Shown piece by piece: positions 1,878-33,355 of a stretch of 57,467 nucleotides of DNA (its first letter is position 1; each line of letters begins with the position of its first letter). Made by a program: the position numbers and the translations under genes. The notes beneath the pieces were generated by a model. It had not been told where the DNA came from and made no database searches. It was given only the letters and a program-made list of their open reading frames with translations. This DNA is from an uncultured Mollicutes bacterium. Its GTDB lineage: Bacteria; Bacillota_I; Bacilli_A; RF39; UBA660. The DNA lies in the NCBI GenBank assembly GCA_900550145.1, contig URRF01000004.1, positions 1 to 57,467 on the forward strand, in the 5' to 3' direction.

Positions 1878-3050
1878 ATGAAAAAAATAAAAATGTTAGT
1901 AATACCAAGTTGGTATCCAAATGAAAAAGATCCATTATGGGGAAATTACTTTATAAAACAAGCAGAAGCATTAAATGATTATATAGATGTTTCTATGCTA
2001 TATATTAATAGAATCGGCTTAAAGGAACTAAATAAATATTATAATGAAAAGAAAACAGATGGATTTAATAAAACTCTATATAACTTTAATTTTTACAAAA
2101 AAACAATTATAAATTATAAATCAGTTAGTTTAGATTATGCATTTAAAAAATATAAAAAAGCTGCATATGATGCATATAAAAAATATATTCAAATAGTAGG
2201 AAAACCAGATATTATATTAGTTCAAAGTATACTTCCAGGAGGAATTGCGGCTAAATATATAAAAGAAAAAGAAGGAATTCCATACATAGTACATGCTCAT
2301 TCAGAAGCAATACTTACAAATCCTATTTATCAAAAATATGTTAACGAAATAGTAAAATATGCAGATGATTATATGGCAGTAAATAATAATATAAAAGAGA
2401 AAATAGAAGCTATTAGAAAAAAAGAATGTCATATTATTCCTAATTTTATAGATTGCAAAAAATTTGATTTAAGTAAAGAAAAGAAAACAGATGATTTTAA
2501 ATTAGTAAGTATATGTAATTTCTATAAAGTAAAAAGTTTAGATGTATTACTTAAGGCACTTAATATTGTAGTAAATGAAAAAAATAAAAAGAATGTAAAA
2601 TTAAAAATAGTAGGAACTGGTGAATATAAAGATTTCTATGAAAGTATTTGTCATAGTTTAAAACTAAATGATAATGTAGAATTTATGGGTTATGTAAATA
2701 ACGATGAAATTCCTAATATTCTTTGTAATAGCGATGTATTATGTGTATCAAGTTCATTTGAAACATTTTGCATACCTATAGTTGAAGCATTTGCATCAGG
2801 TATACCTGTTATTACAACTAATTGTACAGGACCTCTTGAAATAGTAGATAAATCTAATAGTGTAGTAGTACCAATAAATGATATAAATCTATTTGCAGAC
2901 GCAATAATAGATGTAATGAACAATTACAAAAAATATAATAGCAAAGAAATAAAAAAATATGCATATGAAAAATATGACAAAAGTACTATAAGTAAAAAAA
3001 TAATTAAAATATGCGAAGATGTAATAAATAAGAAAAAAAGTATCAAGTGA
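1878..3050 (+). CDS. Glycosyltransferase family 4 (GT-B, Glycos_transf_1 type)
   Basis: 390 aa. C-terminal signature SSSFETFCIPIVEAFASGIPVITT (EX7E-type motif). RBS-like GAAAGGTAG precedes the ATG. Confidence 0.75.
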   Translation: MKKIKMLVIPSWYPNEKDPLWGNYFIKQAEALNDYIDVSMLYINRIGLKELNKYYNEKKTDGFNKTLYNFNFYKKTIINYKSVSLDYAFKKYKKAAYDAYKKYIQIVGKPDIILVQSILPGGIAAKYIKEKEGIPYIVHAHSEAILTNPIYQKYVNEIVKYADDYMAVNNNIKEKIEAIRKKECHIIPNFIDCKKFDLSKEKKTDDFKLVSICNFYKVKSLDVLLKALNIVVNEKNKKNVKLKIVGTGEYKDFYESICHSLKLNDNVEFMGYVNNDEIPNILCNSDVLCVSSSFETFCIPIVEAFASGIPVITTNCTGPLEIVDKSNSVVVPINDINLFADAIIDVMNNYKKYNSKEIKKYAYEKYDKSTISKKIIKICEDVINKKKSIK

Positions 3051-3057
3051 TACTTTT
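3036..3057. terminator. Bidirectional hairpin shared by convergent genes
   Basis: AAAAGTATC-aagt-GATACTTTT, overlapping the stop codons of the + gene (3048-3050) and the - gene (3056-3058). Confidence 0.5.
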
Positions 3058-3313
3058 ACATCATATGCATTGCATTTGGATACGCATTCTGATTATACAT
3101 ATCAGGCAAGCTTGTATTATAAGAAGTTTCAGTATTATAAATACCATTATTACTTTCTAATCTAGATACTCTTGTATCTAATCTTTTTACAATTCTTTCT
3201 AAAGAATTTATTCTATTTTCAAGCTCATTTACACCAGGCATAATAGGATACATACCTTGCATATTTACATTTGGATAGGGCATAAACATAGGATTATTTC
3301 TATCTGATTTCAT
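3056..3313 (-). CDS. Small hypothetical protein (85 aa), Met/Pro/Asn-rich ends with central coiled-coil-like segment
   Basis: AGGTGA RBS 4 nt before the ATG on the minus strand. NELENRINSLERIVKRLDTRVSRLE heptad-like stretch. No family recognised. Confidence 0.5.
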   Translation of the reverse strand: MKSDRNNPMFMPYPNVNMQGMYPIMPGVNELENRINSLERIVKRLDTRVSRLESNNGIYNTETSYNTSLPDMYNQNAYPNAMHMM

Positions 3314-3392
3314 ACATTCACCTAAAACCTTTCATTTAATTATATGCAAATTCAAAAAATTTGTTATAATTATACTTAGTTAGAGGTGAAAA

Positions 3393-4022
3393 ATGAGATT
3401 AAGAAACATAAAAAACAAAGAAGAAATACTTAATAATAGCAAATATATTATATTAAATCCAAAAGAATATAAAGGAAAATGGAATAATGTATTTAAAAAT
3501 AATAATCCAATTTATATAGAAATAGGGATGGGTAAAGGCAAATTCATATTAGAAAATGCATTAAAATATCCAAACATAAATTTTATTGGAATAGAAAAAT
3601 ATGATAGTGTTATAGCAAGGGCTATAAAGAAAATAGATGAACACGAAATAAATAATTTAAAACTAATTAGAATAGATGCAAATGAATTAAATGATGTATT
3701 TGATAAAGAAATAGATTTAATATATTTAACATTCTCTGATCCATGGCCAAAAGATAGACATGCAAAAAGACGTTTAAGTCATAGCGATTTCTTAAAAATA
3801 TATGATGATATATTTAAAAATTATAAAAAAATAGAAATGAAAACAGATAATAGAAAACTGTTTGAATATTCAGTTGTATCTTTTAGTAAATATGGATATG
3901 TAATAGAACAAATAAGTACAGATTTACATAAAGACGAAGAGAATATAATAACAACAGAATACGAAGATAAATTTGTAAAATTAGGGCTTCCAATATACAA
4001 AGTTATATGCTTAAAAAAATAG
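3393..4022 (+). CDS. trmB: tRNA (guanine46-N7)-methyltransferase
   Basis: 209 aa. EIGMGKGKF SAM-binding loop and FSDPWPKDRHAKRRL TrmB signature. AGGTGA RBS. TGTTATAAT extended -10 at 3362-3370. Confidence 0.9.
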   Translation: MRLRNIKNKEEILNNSKYIILNPKEYKGKWNNVFKNNNPIYIEIGMGKGKFILENALKYPNINFIGIEKYDSVIARAIKKIDEHEINNLKLIRIDANELNDVFDKEIDLIYLTFSDPWPKDRHAKRRLSHSDFLKIYDDIFKNYKKIEMKTDNRKLFEYSVVSFSKYGYVIEQISTDLHKDEENIITTEYEDKFVKLGLPIYKVICLKK

Positions 4023-4060
4023 AACATATTTAATAATAACTATTTATTAAATATTTTTTT

Positions 4061-4071
4061 TGTGTTAAAAT
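4061..4071 (+). promoter_or_regulatory. Extended -10 promoter (TGTGtTAAAAT) for the T4SS operon
   Basis: TRTG -16 element plus TAAAAT, ~50 nt upstream of the first T4SS gene. The -35 (TTTATT) is weak. Confidence 0.45.
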
Positions 4072-4123
4072 ATATCTATGATTATGGACACTTTTATATG
4101 TTCTGAAGGAAGTGATTATATAT

Positions 4124-6364
4124 ATGCTATTAGATGATTTTAACTTGGCTGCACTTATTGGTTTAGGAGCAACATCAGTTGGTGTTATCGCAGATATGAT
4201 GAGGTTAATATTTTTCTTTTTAGATTCAATTGTGTATAGTTTAATACCAGTAGTTTATAGAGGAATATTTGCTTTATATGATATAGATAAAATAATAGGC
4301 GTGGGGAATACTCAGAATCTATTAAATACAGCAAAAGAAACTGTTTATTCGTTTCTTGCTATTTTTATGTTCTTTAGAGTTGCTTTTTCACTAATTACTA
4401 TGTTAGTAGACCCATCTTTAATAGATGATAAAAGTAAAGGAGCAAAAAAAATAGTACTAAATATTTTTATATGTTTAGGGCTTATTGTTGTAGTACCAGT
4501 TTTCTTTAGAGTAGCAAAAAATATTCAAACAAGGGTACTGGAAGAAAAAATTATAGAAAGAGCTGTTGGCGGAGATATTTATTCAAATGATCAAAATTAT
4601 AATCTAGGGAATGAACTAGCACTTTCTACATGGAGCGTATTTTTACAGCCAGTAGTAGATGAAGGAGATGCCTATGATGCATGGAAAGGTGTTTTCGAAA
4701 GTGGAAATCCAACAATATGGCCTCTACCAGTCCTAGCAACTCACTTAAATGATACAACAGGAGGTATTTTAGGAGGATTGGCTACTAAAATAGCAGGAGT
4801 AGCAGCAATCTTAAGAGCAACTGGTACAGTCACATATCAACTAGGATATATATGGTTAATATCTGGTTTAGTTGGAATTTATGTAGTTTGGACAATGATC
4901 AAATTGCTTATTGATGTTGCATATCGTTCAATTAAATTCTTACTATTAGAAGTTATTTCACCAATTGCAATAATTTCTTACATAGATCCAAAATCATCAG
5001 AAAAAGGATTATTTAGCAAATGGTTATCAGAAACACTAAAAACATATTTATCATTGTTTATAAGAATATTCATATTTGCAATGGTTTCAGTAATACTAAA
5101 ACAAATTTCAGTTAGTTCGTTCTTTGACGAAGGAAACATACTTACTAGATTATTTTTCATACTTGCACTTGTTGCATTTATGAAAACAGCACCTAAGTTT
5201 ATAGATAACTTATTTGGAACAGAAATATCTAAGGGTAGTGATACTAAGTTTGCATCTGATTTGCTAAGAGGTGGGTTAGGAGCAATTGGTGGAGCAGCGA
5301 CTGGAGCAATTGGTGGTGCTGTTGTTGCAGGAAGAAAAAACCTGCCTATGGGACGAAGTGTATGGGAAGGTGCTAAAAAAGGCTTAACTGGTGGATTTTC
5401 TTCGGCAAGAAAAGGAAGTTTCATGGATTATGGAAAAAATCTAATATCAGGAGCTTCAGGACAAGCTGCTAGAGAATATTTTGAATTAGCTAAAGAAGCG
5501 GATGAAAGAAAAGCTTTAAGAACAAAAGAACGTGCTGAAGCAGCATCTGACACATACGATGCACTTAAGAGCAGTTTTGGTTACAAGGATGCTCCTGATG
5601 CTATGACTAAGGCCACAAAACTTGCAGATGCATTTAGGACGAAAGGTATAAGATTTGATCCTGTAGCGAATGCAAAAGATAAAGAACTTAATAAAGCGTT
5701 ATTGGATGCTGATGAAGCTGATTTAAAAGACGCTTCATTAATGACTGAAAGAGGCAAAGTTCTTGACACGGCACTTGCATATAGAAAATTAGTAGACGAT
5801 GGAACAATATCACAAGATATGGCTGATAAGTTAACAATGCAAGCAATTAGAAAGTATAACAAACTTGCCGCTTCTAAACATTATGCAAGAGCTAAAGGCG
5901 ATTTGAACGACGCTTCAGCAAGAGCAATCCAATTAGAAGTTAGTTATGATGGAAAATCTTCAACAGAACTTCAATCAATTGTTACATCTAAACAGCTTTC
6001 GAATTATCAAGAAATTTTAGGAATGTCGGTTTCTGGAATTTCAGGAATAGAAAATATGAGTGTTGCTGATATAGAAAGAACATTAAGAATAACAATTTCA
6101 GATGATAAGAGAGAAAAGATAAACAATATAAGAAATAAATCTAATACTTTACGTACAACAGTTGACAAAAAAGAAATTTCTGAATTTGTTGCTGATATAG
6201 ATAAGTTTACTGAAAAAGCGGTTGCTGCAGATGGTGTTTCTGGAAAATCAGAAGCATTACTAGGAAAAGCAAATGCTGCTGTAGATGAAGAAATGAAAAT
6301 CTCTAGTAAGAGTTCTGAATTTATTAAAAGAGTTCAACTTGGAGATAAGTATAGGGGTAGATAG
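4124..6364 (+). CDS. Polytopic membrane protein in the VirB6/TrbL/PrgH position of a T4SS, with ~330-aa hydrophilic Ala/Lys/Asp-rich C-terminal region
   Basis: Many hydrophobic helices in the first ~400 aa, a Gly/Ala tract GGLGAIGGAATGAIGGAVVAG, then a long helical tail. First gene of the T4SS cluster. Start moved to ATG 4124 (GAAGGAAGTGA RBS, 8-nt spacer); GTG 4112 is the alternative. Confidence 0.5.
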   Translation: MLLDDFNLAALIGLGATSVGVIADMMRLIFFFLDSIVYSLIPVVYRGIFALYDIDKIIGVGNTQNLLNTAKETVYSFLAIFMFFRVAFSLITMLVDPSLIDDKSKGAKKIVLNIFICLGLIVVVPVFFRVAKNIQTRVLEEKIIERAVGGDIYSNDQNYNLGNELALSTWSVFLQPVVDEGDAYDAWKGVFESGNPTIWPLPVLATHLNDTTGGILGGLATKIAGVAAILRATGTVTYQLGYIWLISGLVGIYVVWTMIKLLIDVAYRSIKFLLLEVISPIAIISYIDPKSSEKGLFSKWLSETLKTYLSLFIRIFIFAMVSVILKQISVSSFFDEGNILTRLFFILALVAFMKTAPKFIDNLFGTEISKGSDTKFASDLLRGGLGAIGGAATGAIGGAVVAGRKNLPMGRSVWEGAKKGLTGGFSSARKGSFMDYGKNLISGASGQAAREYFELAKEADERKALRTKERAEAASDTYDALKSSFGYKDAPDAMTKATKLADAFRTKGIRFDPVANAKDKELNKALLDADEADLKDASLMTERGKVLDTALAYRKLVDDGTISQDMADKLTMQAIRKYNKLAASKHYARAKGDLNDASARAIQLEVSYDGKSSTELQSIVTSKQLSNYQEILGMSVSGISGIENMSVADIERTLRITISDDKREKINNIRNKSNTLRTTVDKKEISEFVADIDKFTEKAVAADGVSGKSEALLGKANAAVDEEMKISSKSSEFIKRVQLGDKYRGR

Positions 6365-6702: not shown

Positions 6703-7228
6703 ACCTGCAGAAGCTTGGATGCCAGTTAGAAACATTTCTAACGGGACAGTAATATTAGACAACAATGAAAAAGTAACAGGTGTAAAAGTAACTCCGAGAA
6801 ACATATTTATACTTGATGAAGATGCACAACAAAATGTTATTAGGGGTTTAAGCAACTTTTACAATACTATTGATTTTGAGTTTTGGTTAATAGTTTCTGA
6901 TAGAGTGGTTGATATTTCTTTATATCAATCTCAGTTACAACTTTTATATAATAATGTTTCTAAACCAAAATTAAGAAAACTTATTATGCAAGATATAAAT
7001 AAAGGTAATTCGTTTATGAATAATAATGTTGTTGATACCGAGTATTATATTTTGTTTAGAGAAAAGAATCCAGATTTAATACAAAAGAAAATAAGGGCTA
7101 TAATAAATGGACTTGCTCTATGTGGTTTGGATTCAATGCAAACTACTAATGAAGATTTAAGAACATTGATAGATAACTTTATCAATGGAGGAGTTAGAAC
7201 TCAGTTTGGGACGGTGATGCCTGTATGA
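6674..7228 (+). CDS. VirB4/TrsE-family ATPase, N-terminal domain as a separate 184-codon ORF
   Basis: NGTVILDNNEKVTGVKVTPRNIFILDEDAQQNVIRGLSNFYNTIDFEFWLIVS matches the N-terminal pattern of Gram-positive VirB4 proteins. Ends in ATGA overlap with the next ORF. Confidence 0.6.
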   Translation: MSKQGKGSNRPAEAWMPVRNISNGTVILDNNEKVTGVKVTPRNIFILDEDAQQNVIRGLSNFYNTIDFEFWLIVSDRVVDISLYQSQLQLLYNNVSKPKLRKLIMQDINKGNSFMNNNVVDTEYYILFREKNPDLIQKKIRAIINGLALCGLDSMQTTNEDLRTLIDNFINGGVRTQFGTVMPV

Positions 7229-9021
7229 ATTTAAAAACAGAATTAGCACCTAAGGGATTAGAATTTAGGTCAAGTGACTTTGTAATGAGTGATAAATATT
7301 GTACTATACTTACTGTTATATCTTATCCAAGATTAATTGGTGAAGGGTATTTATCTTCACTTACAAGTATGCCTGGTATAAAAATAGTAATAAGACATAT
7401 TCCAGTACCTTTTTCTAGTTTACAAAAGATGATTAATAAGCAGGTTGCAGACTTAAGGCAAAGATATACAGAGGAAAATGATAAAACTACAAAAGAAAGA
7501 TATAGACAAGATGTTGAATCATTAGAGTTCTTTATTTCACAACTCGCATCATCTCAATCAAAGATATTTGATTTTCAAATGCATATTTTGATATCTGCTG
7601 ATAATGAAGAAGATTTAAATATGAAAAAGTTAACTGTGAAAAATTATCTTGAAGCGATGGATATGAGAGCAATACCTTTAAGATTTGAACAAGAAAAAGT
7701 TTTAAAATCAATGTTACCAATATTCCCAAAAACAAGAGAGGTTGCAGATTTAGAAAGTAGAATAGGAACACCTATTCCAGCCCCTACAATTGCAGCTATG
7801 TACCCATTCATATTTGATAGTATAAAAGATGAGGGCTTGTCTACACTTCTTGGAGTAGATTTCTCAGGTGGTGTAATATTATTTAATCAATTTTTATTCC
7901 AATTAAGAAAAGAAAATAATAGAAATAATGCAAATTTAATTATATTAGGTACATCAGGTAGTGGTAAAAGTACAAGTGCAAAACTTATTTTAAGAGGACA
8001 TATTAGAAATGATTATCAAATTGTAGCAATAGATCCAGAGGGTGAACTTGAAGAAATGGCTTCACTTTATGATGGGAACTTTATTGATTTAGGTAAAGGT
8101 GGAGAATTTGGAATGATAAATCCACTTGAAATAGTAATAGATGCTGATGAAGAAGAAATAAGACAGGGATTGGGTTATACAGTTTTAACTAAGTCACTAC
8201 AATTTCTAAAAGCATTTATGAAATATTATGATCCATCAATTGGAGAAGATTTACTTACATTATTTAGTGAAGTAGTACAGGATACATATAAGAGATTTGG
8301 AATAGATTTTAATACAGATTTTAGTAAATTAACATCTAATGATTATCCTACATTTAGTGATGTATATGCAACTATAAGAGGTAGATTATCTCAATATATG
8401 TCAAAAACTAATGAACAAGATATAATGGAAAGATTAGAGATAAAAATAAGACCATTAACTAAAGAATTAAAATATTACTTTGATGGTCATACAACTATAA
8501 CAGGTAATAAACATTTTATAGTATTTAATATAAAAGAACTTATGAATTCAGAAGTAAATGTAAGAAATGCATTATTCTTTAATATATTGAAATATGCATG
8601 GAGTTTATGTTTAAATAAAAATGAAAATACAGTTTTATGCGTAGATGAAGCACACGTATTATTAGGAGCAAATAATGCACTTGGAGCAGAATTTTTAGCA
8701 CAAGTTCAAAGACGTGCTAGAAAATATAATACTGGTTCAATTATAATAACTCAACAACCAAGTGATTTCTGTGATCCGTCAGTAATTACACAAGGTAAAG
8801 CAATATTTGATAATGCCTCATATTACTTAGTAATGGGTCTTAAAAAACAAGCTGTTGAAGATTTATCATTACTTATTGATTTAAATGATAATGAAAAAGA
8901 AAGTATAAAAAGATATAGTCAAGGAGAAGCATTATTTGTTTGTGGTAACAGAAGAGTTAGAATGAATGTTACTGTTACTCCAGAAGAATTAGAATCATTT
9001 GGTAGTGCTGGAGGTTTATAA
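7225..9021 (+). CDS. VirB4/TrsE-family T4SS ATPase (middle and C-terminal P-loop domains)
   Basis: 598 aa. Walker A GTSGSGKST, Walker B-like VLCVDEAH, IITQQPSD. The N-terminus continues the VirB4 domain order (YCTILTVISYPRLIGEGYLSSL). Confidence 0.85.
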   Translation: MNLKTELAPKGLEFRSSDFVMSDKYCTILTVISYPRLIGEGYLSSLTSMPGIKIVIRHIPVPFSSLQKMINKQVADLRQRYTEENDKTTKERYRQDVESLEFFISQLASSQSKIFDFQMHILISADNEEDLNMKKLTVKNYLEAMDMRAIPLRFEQEKVLKSMLPIFPKTREVADLESRIGTPIPAPTIAAMYPFIFDSIKDEGLSTLLGVDFSGGVILFNQFLFQLRKENNRNNANLIILGTSGSGKSTSAKLILRGHIRNDYQIVAIDPEGELEEMASLYDGNFIDLGKGGEFGMINPLEIVIDADEEEIRQGLGYTVLTKSLQFLKAFMKYYDPSIGEDLLTLFSEVVQDTYKRFGIDFNTDFSKLTSNDYPTFSDVYATIRGRLSQYMSKTNEQDIMERLEIKIRPLTKELKYYFDGHTTITGNKHFIVFNIKELMNSEVNVRNALFFNILKYAWSLCLNKNENTVLCVDEAHVLLGANNALGAEFLAQVQRRARKYNTGSIIITQQPSDFCDPSVITQGKAIFDNASYYLVMGLKKQAVEDLSLLIDLNDNEKESIKRYSQGEALFVCGNRRVRMNVTVTPEELESFGSAGGL

Positions 9022-9035
9022 TAGCGAGGAATATA

Positions 9036-10892
9036 ATGAATAGAATTTTTAGACGTTTTATAAATTATATAAGAAAAGAAAAAAAGCAAATAATATTTGC
9101 TCTTTTTGCATTTATTATATATTCATTATATTATTTAATATTTAAAGAAAATAGCGAAGTAATTAGTATGGCAGCACCAGTAGTTGTCGCTGGTGCAGTA
9201 GCAGCTGGTGGTGCAACAACTGGAGCAGTTGCAGCAGGTACAACTGCAGCAGGAACTGCAGCAACCACAACCGCAGCAGGAACTGCCACAGCAGGTGCTA
9301 CTACAAGTGGAACTCTAGCCACCGCAAAAGGAACAGCTAGTGGAGCAGTGCAAACTGCAAATACAGCAAAAAGTGCAGCGAATACTGCAAACATACAAAC
9401 AACAGTTAAAAGACCAGTTAATACAGAAGTAAATGCAGGAAAGACAGATATTGGTATGAGAACTGGCAACACACCTGATGCGTTAAAAGGTATAAAAGAA
9501 AAAAATACTAGTTTAGATCCTGCAACATCAAAGAGTGCACAAAAAGAAGCAAGTACAAGCGAAGTGGAAAAAGCAAAAAAATGGAGTAAAAAAGATAGAT
9601 TATCACCTGAAACATCTAATGACGATGAAGAAAATGAGACTGAATTAGAAGAGGGCTCAAGTGCAGTTTTAAAAAAAGGAAATTTAACTAAAATATTTGT
9701 AGGTGGTATATTTGGATTTATATTAGTAATACTATTTGGAATTCCAATTTTACTAGTATCTATAGGTACTCCAGTTTCTTCAATAATCAAAGTTACTGAT
9801 TGTAGTTCTGTAGAAGGTAGTGGTTGTGAAGAAAATGGTTTAGCATCTTTTGTTGAAAAGGCAAAGAATTTCTTTTTATATGGAAGTTTTGAAAAGAGCA
9901 ATAAATTAATAGCTACAAAAGCAGTAGAAACATCAAATGAAATATTTGAAGAAACTGAGGTTAATATAAATATACCATTACTTTTATCAACCGTTTTTTC
10001 GGACGTTACTGATTCCTTTGAAAAATACGAAACAGATGATCTTACAAATGTTAATGGAAAAAATCTTTTAGATAGATTAAAATACTTTAAAGAAGTAGGT
10101 CTATTTCAAATCATAGAAGATAGTGCAGTTTTCGAATGTAAAGCAAAAGAAGTTGATGGAAAAATGACATATTATACAGTTATTGATACAAGTTTTACTG
10201 ATCCATCTACTATTACTGAAACTGAATGTAATGAAGAAAATGTGGGCAAACTTATAAAGGAGACAGTTTATCAATTAAATATAGAAAAATATTATGAATT
10301 ACTTAAAGAAAAGAAAGATATATTAGCAAAAATATATGGAGATGAACAAGTTTCTACAAAAGAAGGACTTGAACAAGTTATTGACAGTATAAGAATGAAT
10401 AGAGAAGTATTTAAAATTTTATATGAAGATGAAACTGAAGAAAATGGTAGTACTGGTAATATTCCTTTATCAGTAATGCGTGATCAAAATATTAACTTAC
10501 AATCGCCATTAAAAGGAAACATAGGCGTTACATCCCCATATGGTAATAGAACAGGTATTTTTGCAGGAAGACACTTAGGCATGGATTTAGTATCTAATGA
10601 TAAAAGTATTTATGCAGCAGGTGATGGAGTAGTAACAAGAGCGAATACAGAAACACTTGGAGGAAAAGTTATCGAAATAACACATACTACATCTGATGGA
10701 AAAAGATATGTATCTCAATATGGACACTTAAGCCAATTCTTAGTTAGTGTTGGTGATAGAGTTAAAGCAGGTGAAATAATAGGAATTATGGGAGATACTG
10801 GTAAAACCTCAGGAGTACACTTACACTTCCAAATGTGGAATGTAGATACAAAAGAAACATACAATCCAGCAAATTTATTTAATACTAATTAA
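9036..10892 (+). CDS. Membrane protein with Ala/Gly/Thr linker, central unknown domain and C-terminal M23 peptidoglycan metallo-endopeptidase (VirB1/PrgK-role hydrolase)
   Basis: 618 aa. TM helices near residues 20-36 and ~215-240. M23 signatures GRHLGMDL, YAAGDGVV, GDTGKTSGVHLHFQMW. Confidence 0.8.
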   Translation: MNRIFRRFINYIRKEKKQIIFALFAFIIYSLYYLIFKENSEVISMAAPVVVAGAVAAGGATTGAVAAGTTAAGTAATTTAAGTATAGATTSGTLATAKGTASGAVQTANTAKSAANTANIQTTVKRPVNTEVNAGKTDIGMRTGNTPDALKGIKEKNTSLDPATSKSAQKEASTSEVEKAKKWSKKDRLSPETSNDDEENETELEEGSSAVLKKGNLTKIFVGGIFGFILVILFGIPILLVSIGTPVSSIIKVTDCSSVEGSGCEENGLASFVEKAKNFFLYGSFEKSNKLIATKAVETSNEIFEETEVNINIPLLLSTVFSDVTDSFEKYETDDLTNVNGKNLLDRLKYFKEVGLFQIIEDSAVFECKAKEVDGKMTYYTVIDTSFTDPSTITETECNEENVGKLIKETVYQLNIEKYYELLKEKKDILAKIYGDEQVSTKEGLEQVIDSIRMNREVFKILYEDETEENGSTGNIPLSVMRDQNINLQSPLKGNIGVTSPYGNRTGIFAGRHLGMDLVSNDKSIYAAGDGVVTRANTETLGGKVIEITHTTSDGKRYVSQYGHLSQFLVSVGDRVKAGEIIGIMGDTGKTSGVHLHFQMWNVDTKETYNPANLFNTN

Positions 10893-10918
10893 TAACACTT
10901 TATTATTAGTTTTAATTT

Positions 10919-10927
10919 TGATATAAT
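10919..10927 (+). promoter_or_regulatory. Extended -10 element TGATATAAT ahead of the coupling-protein gene
   Basis: TGnTATAAT 36 nt upstream of ATG 10963. The -35 is weak. May be an internal promoter. Confidence 0.4.
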
Positions 10928-10962
10928 CTATGTAGTTTAATAATAATTAAGAGGGTGAGAAT

Positions 10963-13113
10963 ATGAAATTGAAATTTAGAGCAGAACCCAAAGATATACT
11001 ATACTTTATATTATTTTCAATTTTTCTATTTTATTTAATAGCAGTTGGTATAGGGAATATAACAAGTTTATCAAGTAAGGGAACCTTAGTTGGTTTCAAT
11101 CCGTTTCCTGGTTTATCAAAAGAAAATATATTTAGTACAATACTATTTTTTATAATCGCAAATATGGCAATACTTCTTCTCGTGTCATCATATTTCTTTG
11201 ATAGAGAAAAGGGCATTGGCTTTGCAAAAGAAAAAAAAGTTGGAGATGGTTATTCAAAATGGGCAAAACCAGAAGATATAAAAAAATCACCTGGAGTAAA
11301 AGAAGTTCATGAACCTGATTATACATATGATGCTGCAGGAGTACCATTATACTCAGAAAAAGGAAAAATTTGGGTTGATGACGGAGAGAGTCATAGCTTA
11401 ATTATAGGAGCAACAGGTAGTGGTAAAACATATTGTATAGTTAATCCACTAGTTCATATTCTTGCAAAAAAAGGCGAGTCAATGGTTATTACAGATCCTA
11501 AAGGTGAAATATATGAAAACAATGCAAACTTCTTAAGAGATAGAGGTTACAATATACTTTTACTTAATTTCCGTAACCCACAAAAGGGTAATATGTGGAA
11601 TCCACTATCGCTTCCTTACATACTTTATAAAAGTGGAAATTACGATAAATCAAACGAATTACTTAGAGATTTAGCAATAAATATACTTCACGAAGAAAAA
11701 ACAGATGATCCATTCTGGCAAAACACATCAGCCGACTATTTCGTTGGTTTAGCACAAGGATTATTTCAAGATGCAGATGAAAAATATATAAATATAAATT
11801 CAATAATTCAAATGCTTACAGTAGGTGAAGAAAAATATGGCGCATCTACATATGCAAAAGAATACTTTAAAATGAAAGATTCATCTAATCCTGCATATAT
11901 AAACGCAGCAGGAACAATTGATGCACCAAATGATACCAAAGGAAGTATTATATCTGTATTTAGACAAAAAATTAATATATTTGCAATGGCTGAAAACTTA
12001 TCTGAAATGCTATCAAAAAGTGATTTCGATATGATGGATATAGGAAGAAGAAGAACAGCAGTATTTCTAATTATTCAAGATGAAAAAAGAACATATCATG
12101 CTCTTACTACTATATTTGTAAAACAGTGTTACGAAAGCTTAATAGATGTAGCACAAGAAGCAGGAGGTAAACTTCCAGTAAGAACAAACTTTATTCTTGA
12201 TGAATTTGCTAATATGCCCGAATTAAAAGACGTAACAACAATGATTACCGCAGCGCGTTCAAGGCAAATAAGATTTAATTTAATAATACAAAACTTTGCA
12301 CAATTAAACCAAGTATATGGTAAAGAAAATGCAGAAACAATTAAAGGAAATTGTGGAAATATGATTTACTTATTAAGTAGTGAACTTAATGCACTAGAAG
12401 AAATAAGTAAACTATGTGGTGATAGAAAAGTTAAAGGTAAGAGTAAAGACAAACCAGATGAAACTAGACCACTAATATCAGTAACAGATTTGCAACGCCT
12501 TAAATTTAAAGATGCAATTGTAAAAAAACAACGTGTTGATCCATTCCAAACAAAACTTAAAGGTGTAGATGAATATAACTGGAATATTCCAAAATATGAA
12601 AAAGCAACATATCCAAGTAGAGAAAAACATTCAATAGAACTATTTGATTTAAAAACATTTGTTAAAGAAAAGAAAAAAGATAGTATTATGGAATCTGGCT
12701 TTGGAATAGAAAGACCTACAATTATGCCTCCATTTTCAAGAAACGTACCAACTAAACCAAAACTTGAAGAAGATGAATTTGATGTTGATGAACTTATAAA
12801 GAAAATAGATGCGAAAATTGCAGAACTTGAAAAAGAAGATGCGGAAAATAGCAAAAAGTTAAATGGTAAATCAAATGAAGTATCTTTCGAAAATTTGAAT
12901 AATGAATCTCTTGATAAAATCGTAAATAATATTAAAGATATAAATCAAGACAAAAAACCAACATACAATAATGATGATTTAAGAAAAATTGTTGAACCAA
13001 GCAAAGACAACGCAGTCAAAGTAAGTGCTGATATTGATAAAATAATAGAAAAAATAGAAGACGAAGATGTAAGTGATGATGAATTTTTTGATGATTTCTT
13101 CTTTGATGAATAA
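10963..13113 (+). CDS. VirD4/TraG-family type IV coupling protein with long acidic C-terminal tail
   Basis: 716 aa. N-terminal TM pair, Walker A GATGSGKT, FILDEFANMPEL and RSRQIRFNLIIQNFAQL motifs. Tail ends DEDVSDDEFFDDFFFDE. GAGGGTGAG RBS. Confidence 0.85.
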   Translation: MKLKFRAEPKDILYFILFSIFLFYLIAVGIGNITSLSSKGTLVGFNPFPGLSKENIFSTILFFIIANMAILLLVSSYFFDREKGIGFAKEKKVGDGYSKWAKPEDIKKSPGVKEVHEPDYTYDAAGVPLYSEKGKIWVDDGESHSLIIGATGSGKTYCIVNPLVHILAKKGESMVITDPKGEIYENNANFLRDRGYNILLLNFRNPQKGNMWNPLSLPYILYKSGNYDKSNELLRDLAINILHEEKTDDPFWQNTSADYFVGLAQGLFQDADEKYININSIIQMLTVGEEKYGASTYAKEYFKMKDSSNPAYINAAGTIDAPNDTKGSIISVFRQKINIFAMAENLSEMLSKSDFDMMDIGRRRTAVFLIIQDEKRTYHALTTIFVKQCYESLIDVAQEAGGKLPVRTNFILDEFANMPELKDVTTMITAARSRQIRFNLIIQNFAQLNQVYGKENAETIKGNCGNMIYLLSSELNALEEISKLCGDRKVKGKSKDKPDETRPLISVTDLQRLKFKDAIVKKQRVDPFQTKLKGVDEYNWNIPKYEKATYPSREKHSIELFDLKTFVKEKKKDSIMESGFGIERPTIMPPFSRNVPTKPKLEEDEFDVDELIKKIDAKIAELEKEDAENSKKLNGKSNEVSFENLNNESLDKIVNNIKDINQDKKPTYNNDDLRKIVEPSKDNAVKVSADIDKIIEKIEDEDVSDDEFFDDFFFDE

Positions 13114-29522: not shown

Positions 29523-29614
29523 CACGTACCACCTAATACATAAATTATAATCTTTTTTATTTAAATATTCAATCATAAAAATATGCATTTTACATATAAT
29601 AAATTGTGATAAAA

Positions 29615-30226
29615 ATGTATGAAATGGAAAAATTAAATTATAATATAAACGATTTAGAACCGTATCTAGATCCTAATACAATTAAGTATCATAGAATACT
29701 TGAAAAGAGATATTTTGATAATCTAAATAAATTATTAATTAAGAATAACTATAATTATAAATATCAACTGGAATATTTAGTTAATAATTTAGAAATATTT
29801 CCTCTACAAGATAGGGATGATATATTATATAACTTAGGAGGTGCACTTAATCATAGAGCATATTTTAATAATATTAGCCCAAATAAAAAAAATATACCCA
29901 TAGGCAAATTAAAAGAAGCGATAGACAAAAAATATGGTTCATACAAAAATTTTAAAGATATTTTTATAAATACAAGTATGAAATTAAAAGGAAGTGGATA
30001 TACATTTTTAATACTTGATAATAATAATGACTTAAATATAATAAACACATCTAATCAAGATACACCATATAGTTATGGGTATATCCCAATAATTGCACTT
30101 GATTTGTGGGAACATGCATATTATTTAAAATATAATGTAAACAAAAAAGAATACATAGATAATTTTTTTGAAATAATTGATTTTGAAATAATAAATAACA
30201 TTTATGAAAGTAACCTAAAGGCATAA
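29615..30226 (+). CDS. Fe/Mn superoxide dismutase family protein, divergent N-terminal helix
   Basis: LNYNINDLEPYL, GGALNHRAYF and LDLWEHAYYLKY are present. The HHxKHH motif reads YHRILEKR. Start uncertain (29606, 29615 or 29624), with no clear RBS. Confidence 0.7.
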   Translation: MYEMEKLNYNINDLEPYLDPNTIKYHRILEKRYFDNLNKLLIKNNYNYKYQLEYLVNNLEIFPLQDRDDILYNLGGALNHRAYFNNISPNKKNIPIGKLKEAIDKKYGSYKNFKDIFINTSMKLKGSGYTFLILDNNNDLNIINTSNQDTPYSYGYIPIIALDLWEHAYYLKYNVNKKEYIDNFFEIIDFEIINNIYESNLKA

Positions 30227-30361
30227 ATGTTTTTTTGTTTGAAAAAACAAAAAAGTAAAATACAATACAAATGTAAAATTTAAAAAAGATGATAAAAAAA
30301 CATTTACAATATTATATATATGTAGTATGATTTATTTGAAAATAGTATGGAGGAAGTAAAT

Positions 30362-32629
30362 ATGGAAAAAGATCTTTTAGAAGAATTAGTTGTAGTTAAA
30401 AGAAGTGGCCAAAGAGTTAATTTTAATGATACAAAAATTGCTCTTGCTGTAAAGAAGGGTTTTGATAGTGTATATGAAGAATATGATGAGAAACTTGTAA
30501 ACAAAGTAAAAGAAAAAGTACTAAGTGAAATAAGAAAAAATTATAAAGATAGAAAAACAATCGGAGTAGAAGACATACAAGATATAATAGAAAAAGAATT
30601 AAAAATTTTAAAGTATGATGAAGTGTACGAATCATTTAAAAGTTATAGAGAAAGAAGAGCAGCATCAAGAGAGGCATTTGTAGTAAAACAACAACACAAA
30701 TTTGTAAAAGCAATTGAATCATTGGGACTTAAATCTGCAAATGAAGAAAATGCAAAAAGAGAAAATGCTAATGTTGATGGAGATGGACCAATGGGTACAA
30801 TGCTTCATTTTGGATCAACTGTATCAAGAGAATTTGCTAAAGCATATTTAATGGATGCAAAATATGCAAGAGCACATGATGAGGGATATATACATATTCA
30901 CGATCTTGATTTTTGGGCAATGGGAACAACAACATGCACACAAATAGATTTAAATAAATTATTTAAAAATGGATTTTCTACGGGGCATGGTTATCTAAGA
31001 ACACCTAATAGTATTATGAGTTATGCTGCACTTGCTGCAATTGCAATACAATCAAATCAAAATGAACAACATGGTGGACAAAGTATACCTGCATTTGACT
31101 ATTATCTAGCACCAGGAGTATTAAAATCATTTAAAAAAGAATTTAAACAAACGTTATATGATTTGCTTGAATTTGAGGGTTTTATTGAATTAATAAACTT
31201 TAATAAAATTATTGAAATAATAGATAAACTTGAATCAATAGAATTTGATTTTGGATTATTTAAAGATATATTATATAAAAGTGAAAAATTAAAAGAAATT
31301 TTACATAATGCATACAAAAAGGCATTACAAAAAGTAGATAGATATACATACCAAGCAATGGAAGCATTTATCCATAATCTAAATACAATGCATTCAAGAG
31401 CAGGAGCACAAGTTCCATTTAGTTCAGTAAACTTTGGAACAGATACATCAAAAGAAGGAAGAATGGTTATAAAAAATTATCTTTTAGCAGTAGATGCAGG
31501 ATTAGGACATGGTGAAACGCCAATATTTCCTATATCTATATTTAAAGTAAAAGAAGGAGTTAATTATTTTGAAGAAGATCCAAACTATGATTTATTTAGA
31601 TTAGCATGTAAAGTATCTGCAAAAAGATTATTTCCAAACTTTTCGTTCCTTGATTCAACATTTAATAAACCATTCTTAAAAGAAGGAGATTATGATACAG
31701 AAGTTGGTTATATGGGTTGTAGAACAAGAGTACTTGCAAATGTATGTGGTCCATCAATAACACCAGGAAGAGGAAATTTAAGTTTCACATCAATTAATTT
31801 ACCTAGATTAGGAATTAAACATGGTATAGCACTAGGTGAAGAAAAAGCAGATATGAAAGGTTTCTATGAAGAATTAGATAACTTAATGGATTTAGTAAAA
31901 GGACAACTACTACAAAGATTTGAATGTCAATGTTCTAAATCAAGAGCAAACTTCAAATTCTTGCTTGGTGCTGGCGTTTGGATAAACAGTGAAAAATTAG
32001 AAAACAATAGCAAACTAAGAACAGTTTTAAAACACGGAACATTATCTATTGGTTTTATAGGACTTGCAGAAACTTTAAAAGCGCTTATAGGTGAACACCA
32101 TGGAGAAAGTGAAAAAGCACAAAAATTAGGTGAAGAAATAATAAAACATATGCGAGATAAATGTGATGAATATACAAAAGAATATAACTTGAATTTTACA
32201 TTACTAGCAACACCAGCAGAAGGACTTAGTGGTAGATTTGTTGCAATGGATAGATCTATATATGGTAAAATAAAAGGTGTAACTGATAGAGATTACTATA
32301 CTAATTCATTTCATGTACCTGTTTATTACAAAACAACAGTTAAACATAAACTAGAAGTTGAAGGTGTATATCACAAATACACAAATGCAGGACACATTTC
32401 ATATATTGAACTTGACGGAGATACAGTTAATAATGTAGAGGCATTTGAAAGTGTAGTTAGAATTATGCATGATTCAGATATAGGATATGGTGCAATAAAT
32501 CACCCAGTAGATAGAGATCCTGTATGTGGATACGTTGGAGTTATAAAAGATGTATGTCCAAGATGTGGAAGACATGAAGGTGAAGGCGTTGAAATGGAAA
32601 AAATAAATAATTTAAATTGTGGATGTTAG
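30362..32629 (+). CDS. nrdD: Anaerobic ribonucleoside-triphosphate reductase (class III) large subunit, ending before the glycyl-radical motif
   Basis: ATP-cone N-terminus (VVKRSGQRVNFNDTKI), catalytic body, zinc ribbon VCGY...CPRCGR. Stops at TAG 32627-32629 after ...EMEKINNLNCGC. Start at ATG 30362 after a GGAGGAAG RBS. Confidence 0.9.
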   Translation: MEKDLLEELVVVKRSGQRVNFNDTKIALAVKKGFDSVYEEYDEKLVNKVKEKVLSEIRKNYKDRKTIGVEDIQDIIEKELKILKYDEVYESFKSYRERRAASREAFVVKQQHKFVKAIESLGLKSANEENAKRENANVDGDGPMGTMLHFGSTVSREFAKAYLMDAKYARAHDEGYIHIHDLDFWAMGTTTCTQIDLNKLFKNGFSTGHGYLRTPNSIMSYAALAAIAIQSNQNEQHGGQSIPAFDYYLAPGVLKSFKKEFKQTLYDLLEFEGFIELINFNKIIEIIDKLESIEFDFGLFKDILYKSEKLKEILHNAYKKALQKVDRYTYQAMEAFIHNLNTMHSRAGAQVPFSSVNFGTDTSKEGRMVIKNYLLAVDAGLGHGETPIFPISIFKVKEGVNYFEEDPNYDLFRLACKVSAKRLFPNFSFLDSTFNKPFLKEGDYDTEVGYMGCRTRVLANVCGPSITPGRGNLSFTSINLPRLGIKHGIALGEEKADMKGFYEELDNLMDLVKGQLLQRFECQCSKSRANFKFLLGAGVWINSEKLENNSKLRTVLKHGTLSIGFIGLAETLKALIGEHHGESEKAQKLGEEIIKHMRDKCDEYTKEYNLNFTLLATPAEGLSGRFVAMDRSIYGKIKGVTDRDYYTNSFHVPVYYKTTVKHKLEVEGVYHKYTNAGHISYIELDGDTVNNVEAFESVVRIMHDSDIGYGAINHPVDRDPVCGYVGVIKDVCPRCGRHEGEGVEMEKINNLNCGC

Positions 32630-32642
32630 AAAGGAGTTTAAT

Positions 32643-32801
32643 ATGGATAAGGAGACAAAAAAAGTTAAAAAAGTAGGCGAAGGTGTTTCTTTTGAAAGAA
32701 TAAGAAGAATTACTGGATATTTAGTAGGAACATTAGATAGATTTAATAATGCTAAAAAATCTGAAGTTTCTGATAGAGTTACCCATACAGGTATAAAATA
32801 A
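32643..32801 (+). CDS. Stand-alone 52-aa peptide carrying the class III RNR glycyl-radical motif
   Basis: AAGGAG RBS with a 6-nt spacer. MDKETKKVKKVGEGVSFERIRRITGYLVGTLDRFNNAKKSEVSDRVTH contains the RxxGY(L) radical loop normally at the NrdD C-terminus. TAATG overlap with nrdG. Confidence 0.7.
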   Translation: MDKETKKVKKVGEGVSFERIRRITGYLVGTLDRFNNAKKSEVSDRVTHTGIK

Positions 32802-33355
32802 TGAACATAAGATTAGCAGCTGATTTACAAACAGATAGCATAGTTGATGGCCCTGGTCTAAGAGCAGTTATATGGACCCAAGGATGTTCACATAACTGCC
32901 CTGGTTGCCAAAATCCAACTACACATGACTTTAATGGTGGTGGTCTAATACCAATTGATATAGTTTGTGATGAAATTAGCAAATTAGAATATCATACAGG
33001 TATTACCTTTAGTGGAGGAGATCCAATGTTTCAACCTGAAAGCTGTAATGAAATTGCTAAATTCGCAAAAAAACAAGGATTAGATATATGGGTATATACC
33101 GGTTTTACATTTGAAGAATTAATAAAAATGTCAGAAAAAAAAGAAATATATAAAGAGTTTTTAAGTAATATAGATGTACTCGTAGATGGAAAGTTTATTT
33201 TAAAACAAAGAGATCTTAATTTACTGTTTAGAGGTTCAAAAAATCAACGACTAATAAATGTAAAAGAAACATTAAAAAAACACGAAATAATAACCCTAGA
33301 CGAAGAAATCTATTTTGGAGAAACACTAAAAGAAACAGAACCAATATTTATATAA
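32801..33355 (+). CDS. nrdG: Anaerobic RNR activating protein (radical SAM)
   Basis: 184 aa. CSHNCPGCQN (CX3CX2C cluster), GITFSGGDP. Confidence 0.9.
   Translation: MNIRLAADLQTDSIVDGPGLRAVIWTQGCSHNCPGCQNPTTHDFNGGGLIPIDIVCDEISKLEYHTGITFSGGDPMFQPESCNEIAKFAKKQGLDIWVYTGFTFEELIKMSEKKEIYKEFLSNIDVLVDGKFILKQRDLNLLFRGSKNQRLINVKETLKKHEIITLDEEIYFGETLKETEPIFI

Follow-up and report, generated by a model that had tools for sequence, protein, structure and literature searches.

The window analysed here is a stretch of 57,467 nucleotides (nt) from an uncultured Mollicutes bacterium (assembly GCA_900550145.1, contig URRF01000004.1, positions 1 to 57,467). It carries nrdD-L, a gene for the large subunit of a class III ribonucleotide reductase (RNR), which ends without the glycyl-radical motif. 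The motif is encoded by the following cistron, nrdD-S, a separate open reading frame (ORF) of 52 codons, and the radical-SAM activase gene nrdG comes next. We think it highly probable that the three genes specify an obligate two-polypeptide formate-type class III RNR together with its activase. This reading is built on what was observed here: the anatomy of the locus, its conservation, the purifying selection acting on it, the separate cistrons with start signals of their own, and the tiling of the two products on a solved NrdD.

Two consecutive ORFs tile one NrdD

The longest ORF in the nrdD-L frame spans positions 30347-32629 (760 amino acids, aa) and ends in ...CPRCGRHEGEGVEMEKINNLNCGC before its TAG codon. 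Its true start is likely the ATG at 30362, since a GGAGG lies at 30349-30353 and proteins of 755 aa are called in other assemblies; the large subunit would then have 755 aa and not the 756 given in an earlier note on this DNA. The same note described the TAG stop at 32627-32629, a separate 52-codon ORF with its own ribosome-binding site and ATG (32643) and a TAATG overlap, all of which are borne out by the sequence. Translation of nrdD-S gives MDKETKKVKKVGEGVSFERIRRITGYLVGTLDRFNNAKKSEVSDRVTHTGIK, which is laid out as a basic N-terminus (MDKETKKVKKV), the second copy of a short repeat, the glycyl-radical loop and a C-terminal helix/tail region. Its TAA stop and the ATG of nrdG overlap (TAATG, 32801). 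Together with the 13-nt gap between the first two genes, this overlap gives the appearance of translational coupling, which would favour co-production of the three proteins.

Family models were divided between the two ORFs. In PRK07111 (NCBIfam, 746 positions), the large ORF covered 3-714 and the small ORF 706-744 (9e-12), and in the Pfam family NRDD (PF13597) the corresponding ranges were 1-531 and 532-562. That the radical loop lies on a separate small cistron, as the earlier note proposed, is confirmed by these coverages and by the ORFs themselves. The large ORF scored 613.7 bits against PF13597 (cut-off 26.2; 4e-184), 985.5 against PRK07111 (764) and 567 against TIGR02487 (326), and the nrdG product scored 143.7 bits against TIGR02491 (cut-off 126.1). 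The only Pfam model hit by nrdD-S was NRDD (PF13597, 31.6 bits); the pyruvate formate-lyase (PFL)-type Gly_radical family PF01228 gave no match in it at E<=0.1. Every one of the 120 best database matches of nrdD-S was 48-75 aa long.

The closest solved structure, Prevotella copri NrdD (PDB 8P23), was used as the structural reference. An alignment of the two ORFs with this intact enzyme, a check suggested by the earlier note, showed that they tile it: residues 15-745 of the large ORF cover 8P23 residues 8-707 and residues 17-50 of the small ORF cover 707-740. Because the ORFs align in this way, the break falls exactly between the zinc ribbon of the glycyl radical domain, which stays on the large chain, and its glycine loop and C-terminal tail, which lie on the peptide. 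An AlphaFold2 model of the large chain alone reached a pLDDT of 86.6, and its best Foldseek matches were P. copri NrdD entries with 8P23 at the top (41% identity to chain B). P. copri NrdD is a formate-using enzyme whose active site contains Cys416, Cys171 and Asn435, the last replacing a third cysteine; roles of its radical Gly711 and of Tyr712 have been described, and its glycyl radical domain is mobile (PMC11226230). The finger loop of nrdD-L has the Met-x-Cys pattern that marks formate-type NrdD, and the codon of Asn477 occupies 31775-31777. As in other NrdD proteins, the barrel scores above curated cut-offs, both catalytic cysteines are present and NrdG is encoded downstream. The RxxGY motif is absent from the large ORF, which ends in ...NNLNCGC, and is found in the next cistron.

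The split is conserved and under purifying selection

The exact 52-aa peptide was found in 3,537 blocks of a public assembly collection, including contigs longer than 1 Mb, and the exact 755-aa large protein in 706 contigs. When one genome per GTDB species was scanned with the large protein, 80 loci of 69-88% identity were obtained, all from uncultured gut or rumen bacteria labelled Bacilli, 'Clostridium sp. CAG:1000' or 'CAG:524', Erysipelotrichaceae or Tenericutes. The same order of large ORF, small ORF and nrdG is present in 76 of these 80 loci; of the remaining four, L081 is fused and three are truncated at the end of a contig. A Shine-Dalgarno (SD)-like motif precedes the small ORF in all 76, and nrdG follows it immediately in 75. 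The spacer between the two ORFs varies from 11 to 54 nt and their relative frame may be 0, 1 or 2. Because both vary between species, frameshifting and read-through are not credible as ways of joining the ORFs. No Rfam family, introns included, matched the split region.

Selection was measured by the Nei-Gojobori method as a ratio of nonsynonymous to synonymous substitution rates (dN/dS) pooled over 1,427 species pairs. The value for the peptide core (34 codons) was 0.10 and that for the enzyme body 0.11, so that purifying selection on the peptide equals that on the body in strength. For the zinc ribbon the value was 0.03, for positions 1-12 of the nrdD-L tail 0.20 and for the peptide N-terminus (8 codons) 0.58. 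Each of Cys197, Met456-Gly-Cys458 and Asn477 was at least 90% conserved in alignment A1, as was RIRRITGYLVGT of the glycyl-radical region among 77 sequences (the 76 related loci and the window).

Cumulatively, these results establish that the split is neither a sequencing error nor a pseudogene. The earlier note had left room for both, asking for a check of reads and for a search for the same split in relatives. A read or assembly error is excluded by the exact peptide in 3,537 blocks of independent assemblies, and the split recurs in 76 of the 80 species loci. The alternative that nrdD is simply inactivated fails against this shared layout, the SD-like motifs, the retained nrdG, the equal selection on peptide and body, and the conserved catalytic residues. 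What that note missed is that the split belongs to a large and old family reaching beyond one genome, which also occurs in intein-bearing phage-like loci.

New ends at the break and a short repeat

The break has given each product a new end. All 77 large chains continue past the ribbon with the pattern R-x-x-x-E-G-[VI]-x-hydrophobic-E-x-[IVL] and then a variable, cysteine-bearing stretch, an acidic, Cys-rich and conserved tail that had escaped the earlier note. At least one tail cysteine is present in each of the 77, usually two or three (as CxC, CC or CxxC), and almost never is there any in the peptide. The first 12 residues of the tail are gaplessly collinear with the strand before the glycine loop in fused relatives (L081, CGRSEEDGVKFERIRRITGY), and the same segment recurs in the peptide (VGEGVSFERI) after a new Lys-rich N-terminus. 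The tail has a mean net charge of -2.8 and is negative in 97% of sequences; the peptide N-terminus has a mean of +2.2 and is positive in 100%. The opposite charges of the new termini suggest an electrostatic aid to assembly.

The two GEGV codon stretches start at 32579 and 32676, 97 nt apart as reported earlier, and are identical at 19 of 27 nt over GEGVxxExI. At an offset of +97 the identity is 52% over 56 nt, compared with 32% for random pairs (p≈0.002). A comparison of profiles made from 51 tail and 30 peptide variants gave a score of 2.4 for positions 8-17, against -11.9±5.0 for shuffles (p=0.003). The likeness is confined to the GEGV and E-K/R-I columns, and no similarity between the tail and peptide profiles was detected past position 12. 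These results support an old, short and partial duplication as the probable event at the break. The tandem duplication claimed in the earlier note thus holds for the short GEGV / E-K/R-I segment; the further homology that it drew between NNLNCGC and RRITGYL is not supported. Nor does its pairing of 'tgt gga tgt' with 'act gga tat' agree with the ungapped register, in which the conserved tail cysteine lies opposite the radical glycine and not opposite the threonine.

The zinc ribbon (DPVC...CPRC) keeps Cys727, Cys737 and Cys740 invariant in A1, with Asp724 (32510-32521 encode Asp724-Pro-Val-Cys727) in place of the first ribbon cysteine. This replacement occurs throughout the clade in split and fused enzymes alike, including fused P0121 and L081. 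The idea that a tail cysteine supplies the fourth zinc ligand that the ribbon lacks was considered and rejected as a general rule: split enzymes with a full CxxC...CxxC ribbon (P0124, P0132, P0134 and P0150) are also Cys-rich in their tails, and three-Cys ribbons are also found with a Cys-free tail (P0125) or in a fused enzyme (P0121). A thioredoxin-type shuttle, as formed by the C-termini of class I and II enzymes, is unlikely given the formate-type Met-x-Cys loop and Asn477 in the place of the third cysteine. No proposed role for the Cys-rich tail fits all the data.

Fused relatives and the wider family

The fused locus L081 (positions 2364-4757) encodes an ordinary fused nrdD followed by nrdG and is a 74% identical relative. 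We placed it in a neighbour-joining tree calculated from 730 body columns common to the sequences, with 100 bootstrap replicates. The sister of fused L081 is split L070, within the split clade, and L085, L086 and L088, all of them split, branch off outside the common ancestor of L081 and the window in 100% of the replicates. Because it is nested inside the split clade, L081 appears to have been re-fused, an event also missed by the earlier note, so that at least one lineage seems to have rejoined its two ORFs. Re-fusion, for example by a deletion between the two repeat copies, would be the most economical reading of this tree. If so, both forms are viable and interconvertible.

For the wider family, an exhaustive HMMER search was run over 1.84 billion cluster representatives. 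Of the nearest NrdD clusters (50% identity) whose C-terminus is complete, some 108 in number, about 56 have no glycine motif. These glycine-less clusters have varied tails after CPxCGRxEGE..., many contain inteins, and one group still has ...NKIKGYAN... in the register of RITGY. Fused and split forms are interleaved in a crude tree of the vicinity of the window clade. Eight glycine-less, mostly intein-bearing NrdD large subunits (P0127, P0130, P0131, P0133, P0136, P0143, P0177 and P0211) have a common long tail, ...GEPMTLEMWNKIKGYAN..., in which a variable stretch (with cysteine in several) precedes GNPDEEADR... and a G-Y is kept in the radical-motif register.

Separate glycine peptides accompany some of these genes. 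The locus of P0133 (L091) also encodes an intact one; its order is nrdD-L, an unknown ORF, a 47-aa glycine ORF, an HNH endonuclease gene and nrdG. Locus L094, which has a phage-like neighbourhood, contains an intein-bearing nrdD-L, a 58-aa glycine ORF and nrdG. Two other phage-like loci, L092 and L093, have no small ORF within 4 kb. One glycine-less cluster corresponds to the RefSeq 'anaerobic ribonucleoside triphosphate reductase' of cultured Selenomonas strains. Its example from Selenomonas sp. KH1T6 (FNWN01000020.1; L089/L158, gene at 8360-10648 of L158) is an NrdD of the P0141 cluster (WP_074697930.1) that ends in ...CPHCHRKEVETGSFTIKRMKK, again without the radical glycine.

Stand-alone peptides in viral contigs

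IMG/VR was scanned twice with glycyl-radical peptides, the second time with 10-kb flanks. In the first scan the motif was carried by a small ORF in 54 of 63 loci and by a fused gene in only 5, and most loci had neither nrdD-L nor nrdG within 4 kb. The second scan found at least 588 viral-contig stretches encoding relatives of the peptide. Among the best 76 of these, the motif is on a small ORF in 72, and 67 of the 72 lack both nrdD-L and nrdG in the fetched DNA; for 19 of the viral loci this DNA covers at least 6 kb on both sides. The viral loci (L095-L234; for example L111 3953-4132 and L159 8321-8509) hold several peptide families in stop-to-stop ORFs of 44-205 aa, some of which have an extra N-terminal 'DGDxVxxxY' segment in place of GEGV. 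The peptide gene of L111/L159 lies among Mu-like early genes, with PHROG families that include a Mor-like late activator. When annotated phage genomes were searched with the peptide, most matches were unannotated fragments or fused nrdD genes from C. difficile phages. The orphan peptides of viruses lend indirect support to a peptide that could act in trans.

Feature coordinates and neighbourhood

Table 1. Coordinates of the nrdD-L/nrdD-S/nrdG locus in the window
Feature	Position	Strand	Remarks
nrdD-L (class III RNR large subunit)	30362..32629	+	ATP-cone, alpha/beta barrel, zinc ribbon and tail; without radical glycine
ATP-cone (allosteric activity site), residues 15-105	30389..30661	+	Pfam PF03477, 2e-12
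Cys197, equivalent of P. copri Cys171 (second catalytic Cys, first barrel strand)	30935..30937	+	Alignment to 8P23
Finger loop Met456-Gly457-Cys458	31712..31720	+	Cys458 is the thiyl-radical Cys by alignment to P. copri Cys416
Zinc-ribbon part of the glycyl radical domain, HPVDRDPVCGYVGVIKDVCPRCG	32501..32569	+	Three Cys and Asp724
C-terminal tail of nrdD-L, RHEGEGVEMEKINNLNCGC	32570..32626	+	Acidic, Cys residues at the end
Repeat copy 1 (GEGVEMEKI)	32579..32605	+	19/27 nt identical to copy 2
TAG stop of nrdD-L (32627-32629), Shine-Dalgarno AAAGGAG (32630-32636), 6-nt spacer	32627..32642	+	
nrdD-S, predicted radical-bearing subunit of 52 aa	32643..32801	+	Own Shine-Dalgarno and ATG at 32643
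Repeat copy 2 (GEGVSFERI)	32676..32702	+	Compared with copy 1 by nt identity and profile test
Glycyl-radical motif RRITGYL	32703..32723	+	Gly25 (32715-32717), predicted radical site, equivalent of P. copri Gly711 by alignment
nrdG, radical-SAM activase	32801..33355	+	TIGR02491; Pfam Fer4_12 and Radical_SAM

A gene for an Fe/Mn superoxide dismutase (29606-30226) lies directly upstream of the nrdD operon on the same strand. This adjacency is present in other assemblies of the species (L005-L008) and absent in the more distant L001-L004. Further upstream, positions 7225-13113 encode a VirB4/TraG-like ATPase, an M23 peptidase-domain protein and a type IV coupling protein, conjugation-type genes that suggest an integrated conjugative element. 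No convincing NrdR box was found upstream of nrdD, and hits of the pattern in the window did not exceed those in shuffles. With a G+C content of 26%, the promoter scan of the window was uninformative (21 promoter-like sites, 21.6 expected), and the terminator scan was likewise so.

Discussion

We infer two-chain assembly, activation within the complex and any selective advantage from the features described above, and propose the following mechanism. NrdD-L would contribute the ATP-cone and the zinc ribbon as well as the barrel, in which both catalytic cysteines lie. NrdD-S would supply non-covalently the parts that come after the ribbon, namely a strand, the buried loop with Gly25 and the C-terminal helix/tail across the top of the barrel. 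NrdG would put the radical on Gly25 by means of S-adenosylmethionine, and the radical would then move from Gly25 to Cys458 of NrdD-L as in single-chain enzymes. The ancestral break probably came from a duplication of about 9-12 codons at the boundary between ribbon and loop. Its upstream copy would have become the start of the acidic, Cys-rich tail of NrdD-L, and its downstream copy would have come to lie behind the new basic N-terminus of NrdD-S. The oppositely charged termini probably aid the assembly of the two pieces. A possible advantage of the arrangement is that oxygen damage would be limited to a cheap, replaceable peptide.

Several observations weigh against an obligate two-chain enzyme. 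The fused L081 shows that the enzyme can function unsplit. The glycine-less nrdD of Selenomonas has no small glycine ORF or nrdG within 10 kb, which places any partner genes elsewhere; adjacency is thus not universal, and some glycine-less copies could be non-functional. The last 13 residues of the lone large-chain model (748-760) have a pLDDT below 50, and the tail is thus predicted to be disordered. Ten large ORFs of the window were scanned with Pfam, and no second RNR was found among them.

Other accounts of the locus differ in what becomes of the two ORFs. A decaying pseudogene or a sequencing artefact would explain why the essential glycine is absent from the large ORF and why the small ORF is mostly left unnamed by annotation. 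It is contradicted by independent assemblies in the thousands, by the occurrence in 76 species, by purifying selection and by the intactness of nrdG, and we give it practically no credence. The ORFs might also be joined at expression: the ribosome could shift frame, read through the stop or bypass the stretch between the repeated GG[CT]-GTT codons, or the join could be made by splicing of the RNA or trans-splicing of the proteins. A GGC-GTT and a matching GGT-GTT do lie 97 nt apart, and a join at that point would restore exactly the fused sequence of L081. Such joining is nevertheless very improbable, because the frames and spacers vary as described and some species have more than one stop, and because every small ORF has an SD-like motif and an ATG of its own. 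In addition, the tail beyond the repeat is under selection and retains cysteine, and no Rfam match such as an intron was found. The 19-aa tail and the 11-aa N-terminus are also far below the size of a split intein, and no intein domain was detected in either ORF.

If the two-chain enzyme is accepted, it can still be asked whether the split was selected or merely tolerated, and we rate these two readings as about equally likely. The gene may have been broken by a duplication or a mobile element at a tolerant surface linker and have drifted to fixation in pieces, with the tails as scars of assembly. Inteins, introns and homing endonucleases often target RNR genes (PMC3653736), an HNH endonuclease gene lies within the split operon of L091, and many glycine-less homologues contain inteins. 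The interleaving of split and fused forms in the tree, the re-fused L081 and the precedent of the Aeh1 NrdA-a/NrdA-b pair also fit a neutral origin. The persistence of the split in at least 76 species and many 50%-identity clusters, the conservation of the tail and of its universal cysteine, and the phage orphan peptides, which point to a use beyond that of a scar, speak against it; we regard neutrality as a plausible option that falls short of probable. An adaptive split would refine the two-chain explanation and is not exclusive of it: the same enzyme would treat its peptide as a consumable cartridge, exchanging one cleaved by oxygen for a fresh one activated by NrdG, and phages would bring their own. 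A passage in PMC12288474, citing Andorfer 2021 and Kammel & Sawers 2022, states that glycyl radical enzymes are cleaved by oxygen at the radical glycine and that GrcA rescues PFL. The numerous viral stretches with peptide relatives, mostly without nrdD-L or nrdG nearby among the best 76, the viral peptide gene among Mu-like early genes and the superoxide dismutase gene directly upstream of nrdD-L in this species are in line with it. An exposed glycyl radical is, however, regarded as unstable (PMC11226230), L081 and the interleaved fused relatives suggest that the difference in fitness is small, and nrdD-L may lie beyond the DNA fetched from the viral contigs. We entertain the adaptive reading only tentatively.

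The proposed two-chain enzyme has the ATP-cone, the barrel, both cysteines, the Met-x-Cys loop, the zinc ribbon, the RxxGY loop, the C-terminal helix and the adjacent activase in common with single-chain NrdD and NrdG (P. copri 8P23; phage T4 1H7A). It differs from them in the break between ribbon and loop, in the extra acidic, Cys-rich tail and the extra basic peptide N-terminus, and in the change of the first ribbon cysteine to aspartate. The analogy with GrcA/YfiD drawn in the earlier note is apt as a concept, since GrcA is likewise a small free-standing glycyl-radical protein working in trans with a large barrel subunit, as NrdD-S would. GrcA (PF01228) serves as a reserve for a PFL with a radical glycine of its own, whereas a large subunit without glycine would make the peptide obligatory here. 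Unlike GrcA, nrdD-S matches NRDD, and its gene is presumably transcribed together with those of its partner and activase, with apparent coupling of translation as well.

Split RNRs of other classes are also encoded by two consecutive genes, as in class II NrdJa/NrdJb (Pseudomonas aeruginosa and a Thermus phage) and class Ia NrdA-a/NrdA-b of Aeromonas phage Aeh1. Their pieces assemble non-covalently (PMC3045599, PMC4520616, PMC9669993), and the split Aeh1 NrdA requires its novel tails to be active, as would fit a part played by them in assembly (PMC3045599). They differ from the present case in class and break point, and in that the radical-harbouring residue is not parted from the active site; neither has a piece of only about 50 aa. 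The break has no homologue among them, as the glycyl radical domain is absent from classes I and II. In phages, nrdD is the RNR gene most often interrupted (PMC3653736). The known cases (a group I intron in T4, an intein in c-st, Lactococcus phage 949 and the fragments of Aeromonas phage phiAS4) are mostly introns or inteins spliced to one chain, with phiAS4 an unexplained fragmentation, and none has been described as a conserved stand-alone radical peptide. In our full-text literature search, too, no report came up of a class III RNR whose radical peptide has a gene of its own. The peptide has no model of its own in the curated libraries (Pfam, NCBIfam) and is mostly unnamed in the sources: one cluster is called 'hypothetical protein', and ten NCBI-sourced clusters returned no name.

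To our knowledge, every characterised glycyl radical enzyme has its radical glycine and catalytic cysteine in one chain. If a natural family keeps the two on different chains, this would show that the radical domain can work as a detachable subunit, and a 52-residue substrate of NrdG would be a minimal system for radical installation and transfer, open to electron paramagnetic resonance (EPR), peptide chemistry and cryo-electron microscopy (cryo-EM). The large ORF is annotated as a complete NrdD, so that surveys of RNRs relying on annotation would overlook the peptide. For strict gut anaerobes, the split suggests a cheap recovery of DNA-precursor synthesis after exposure to oxygen. On the most speculative view, which we judge unlikely but worth stating, NrdD-S peptides of about 50 aa would form an unrecognised class of diffusible, consumable radical cofactors: NrdG would activate them, they would dock on a glycine-less NrdD-L, and those damaged by oxygen would be exchanged for new ones. 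Orphan copies would be carried by temperate phages of gut anaerobes as auxiliary genes, to keep up or take over deoxynucleotide synthesis in the host. The viral orphan peptide genes suggest that phages may possess a novel type of auxiliary metabolic gene.

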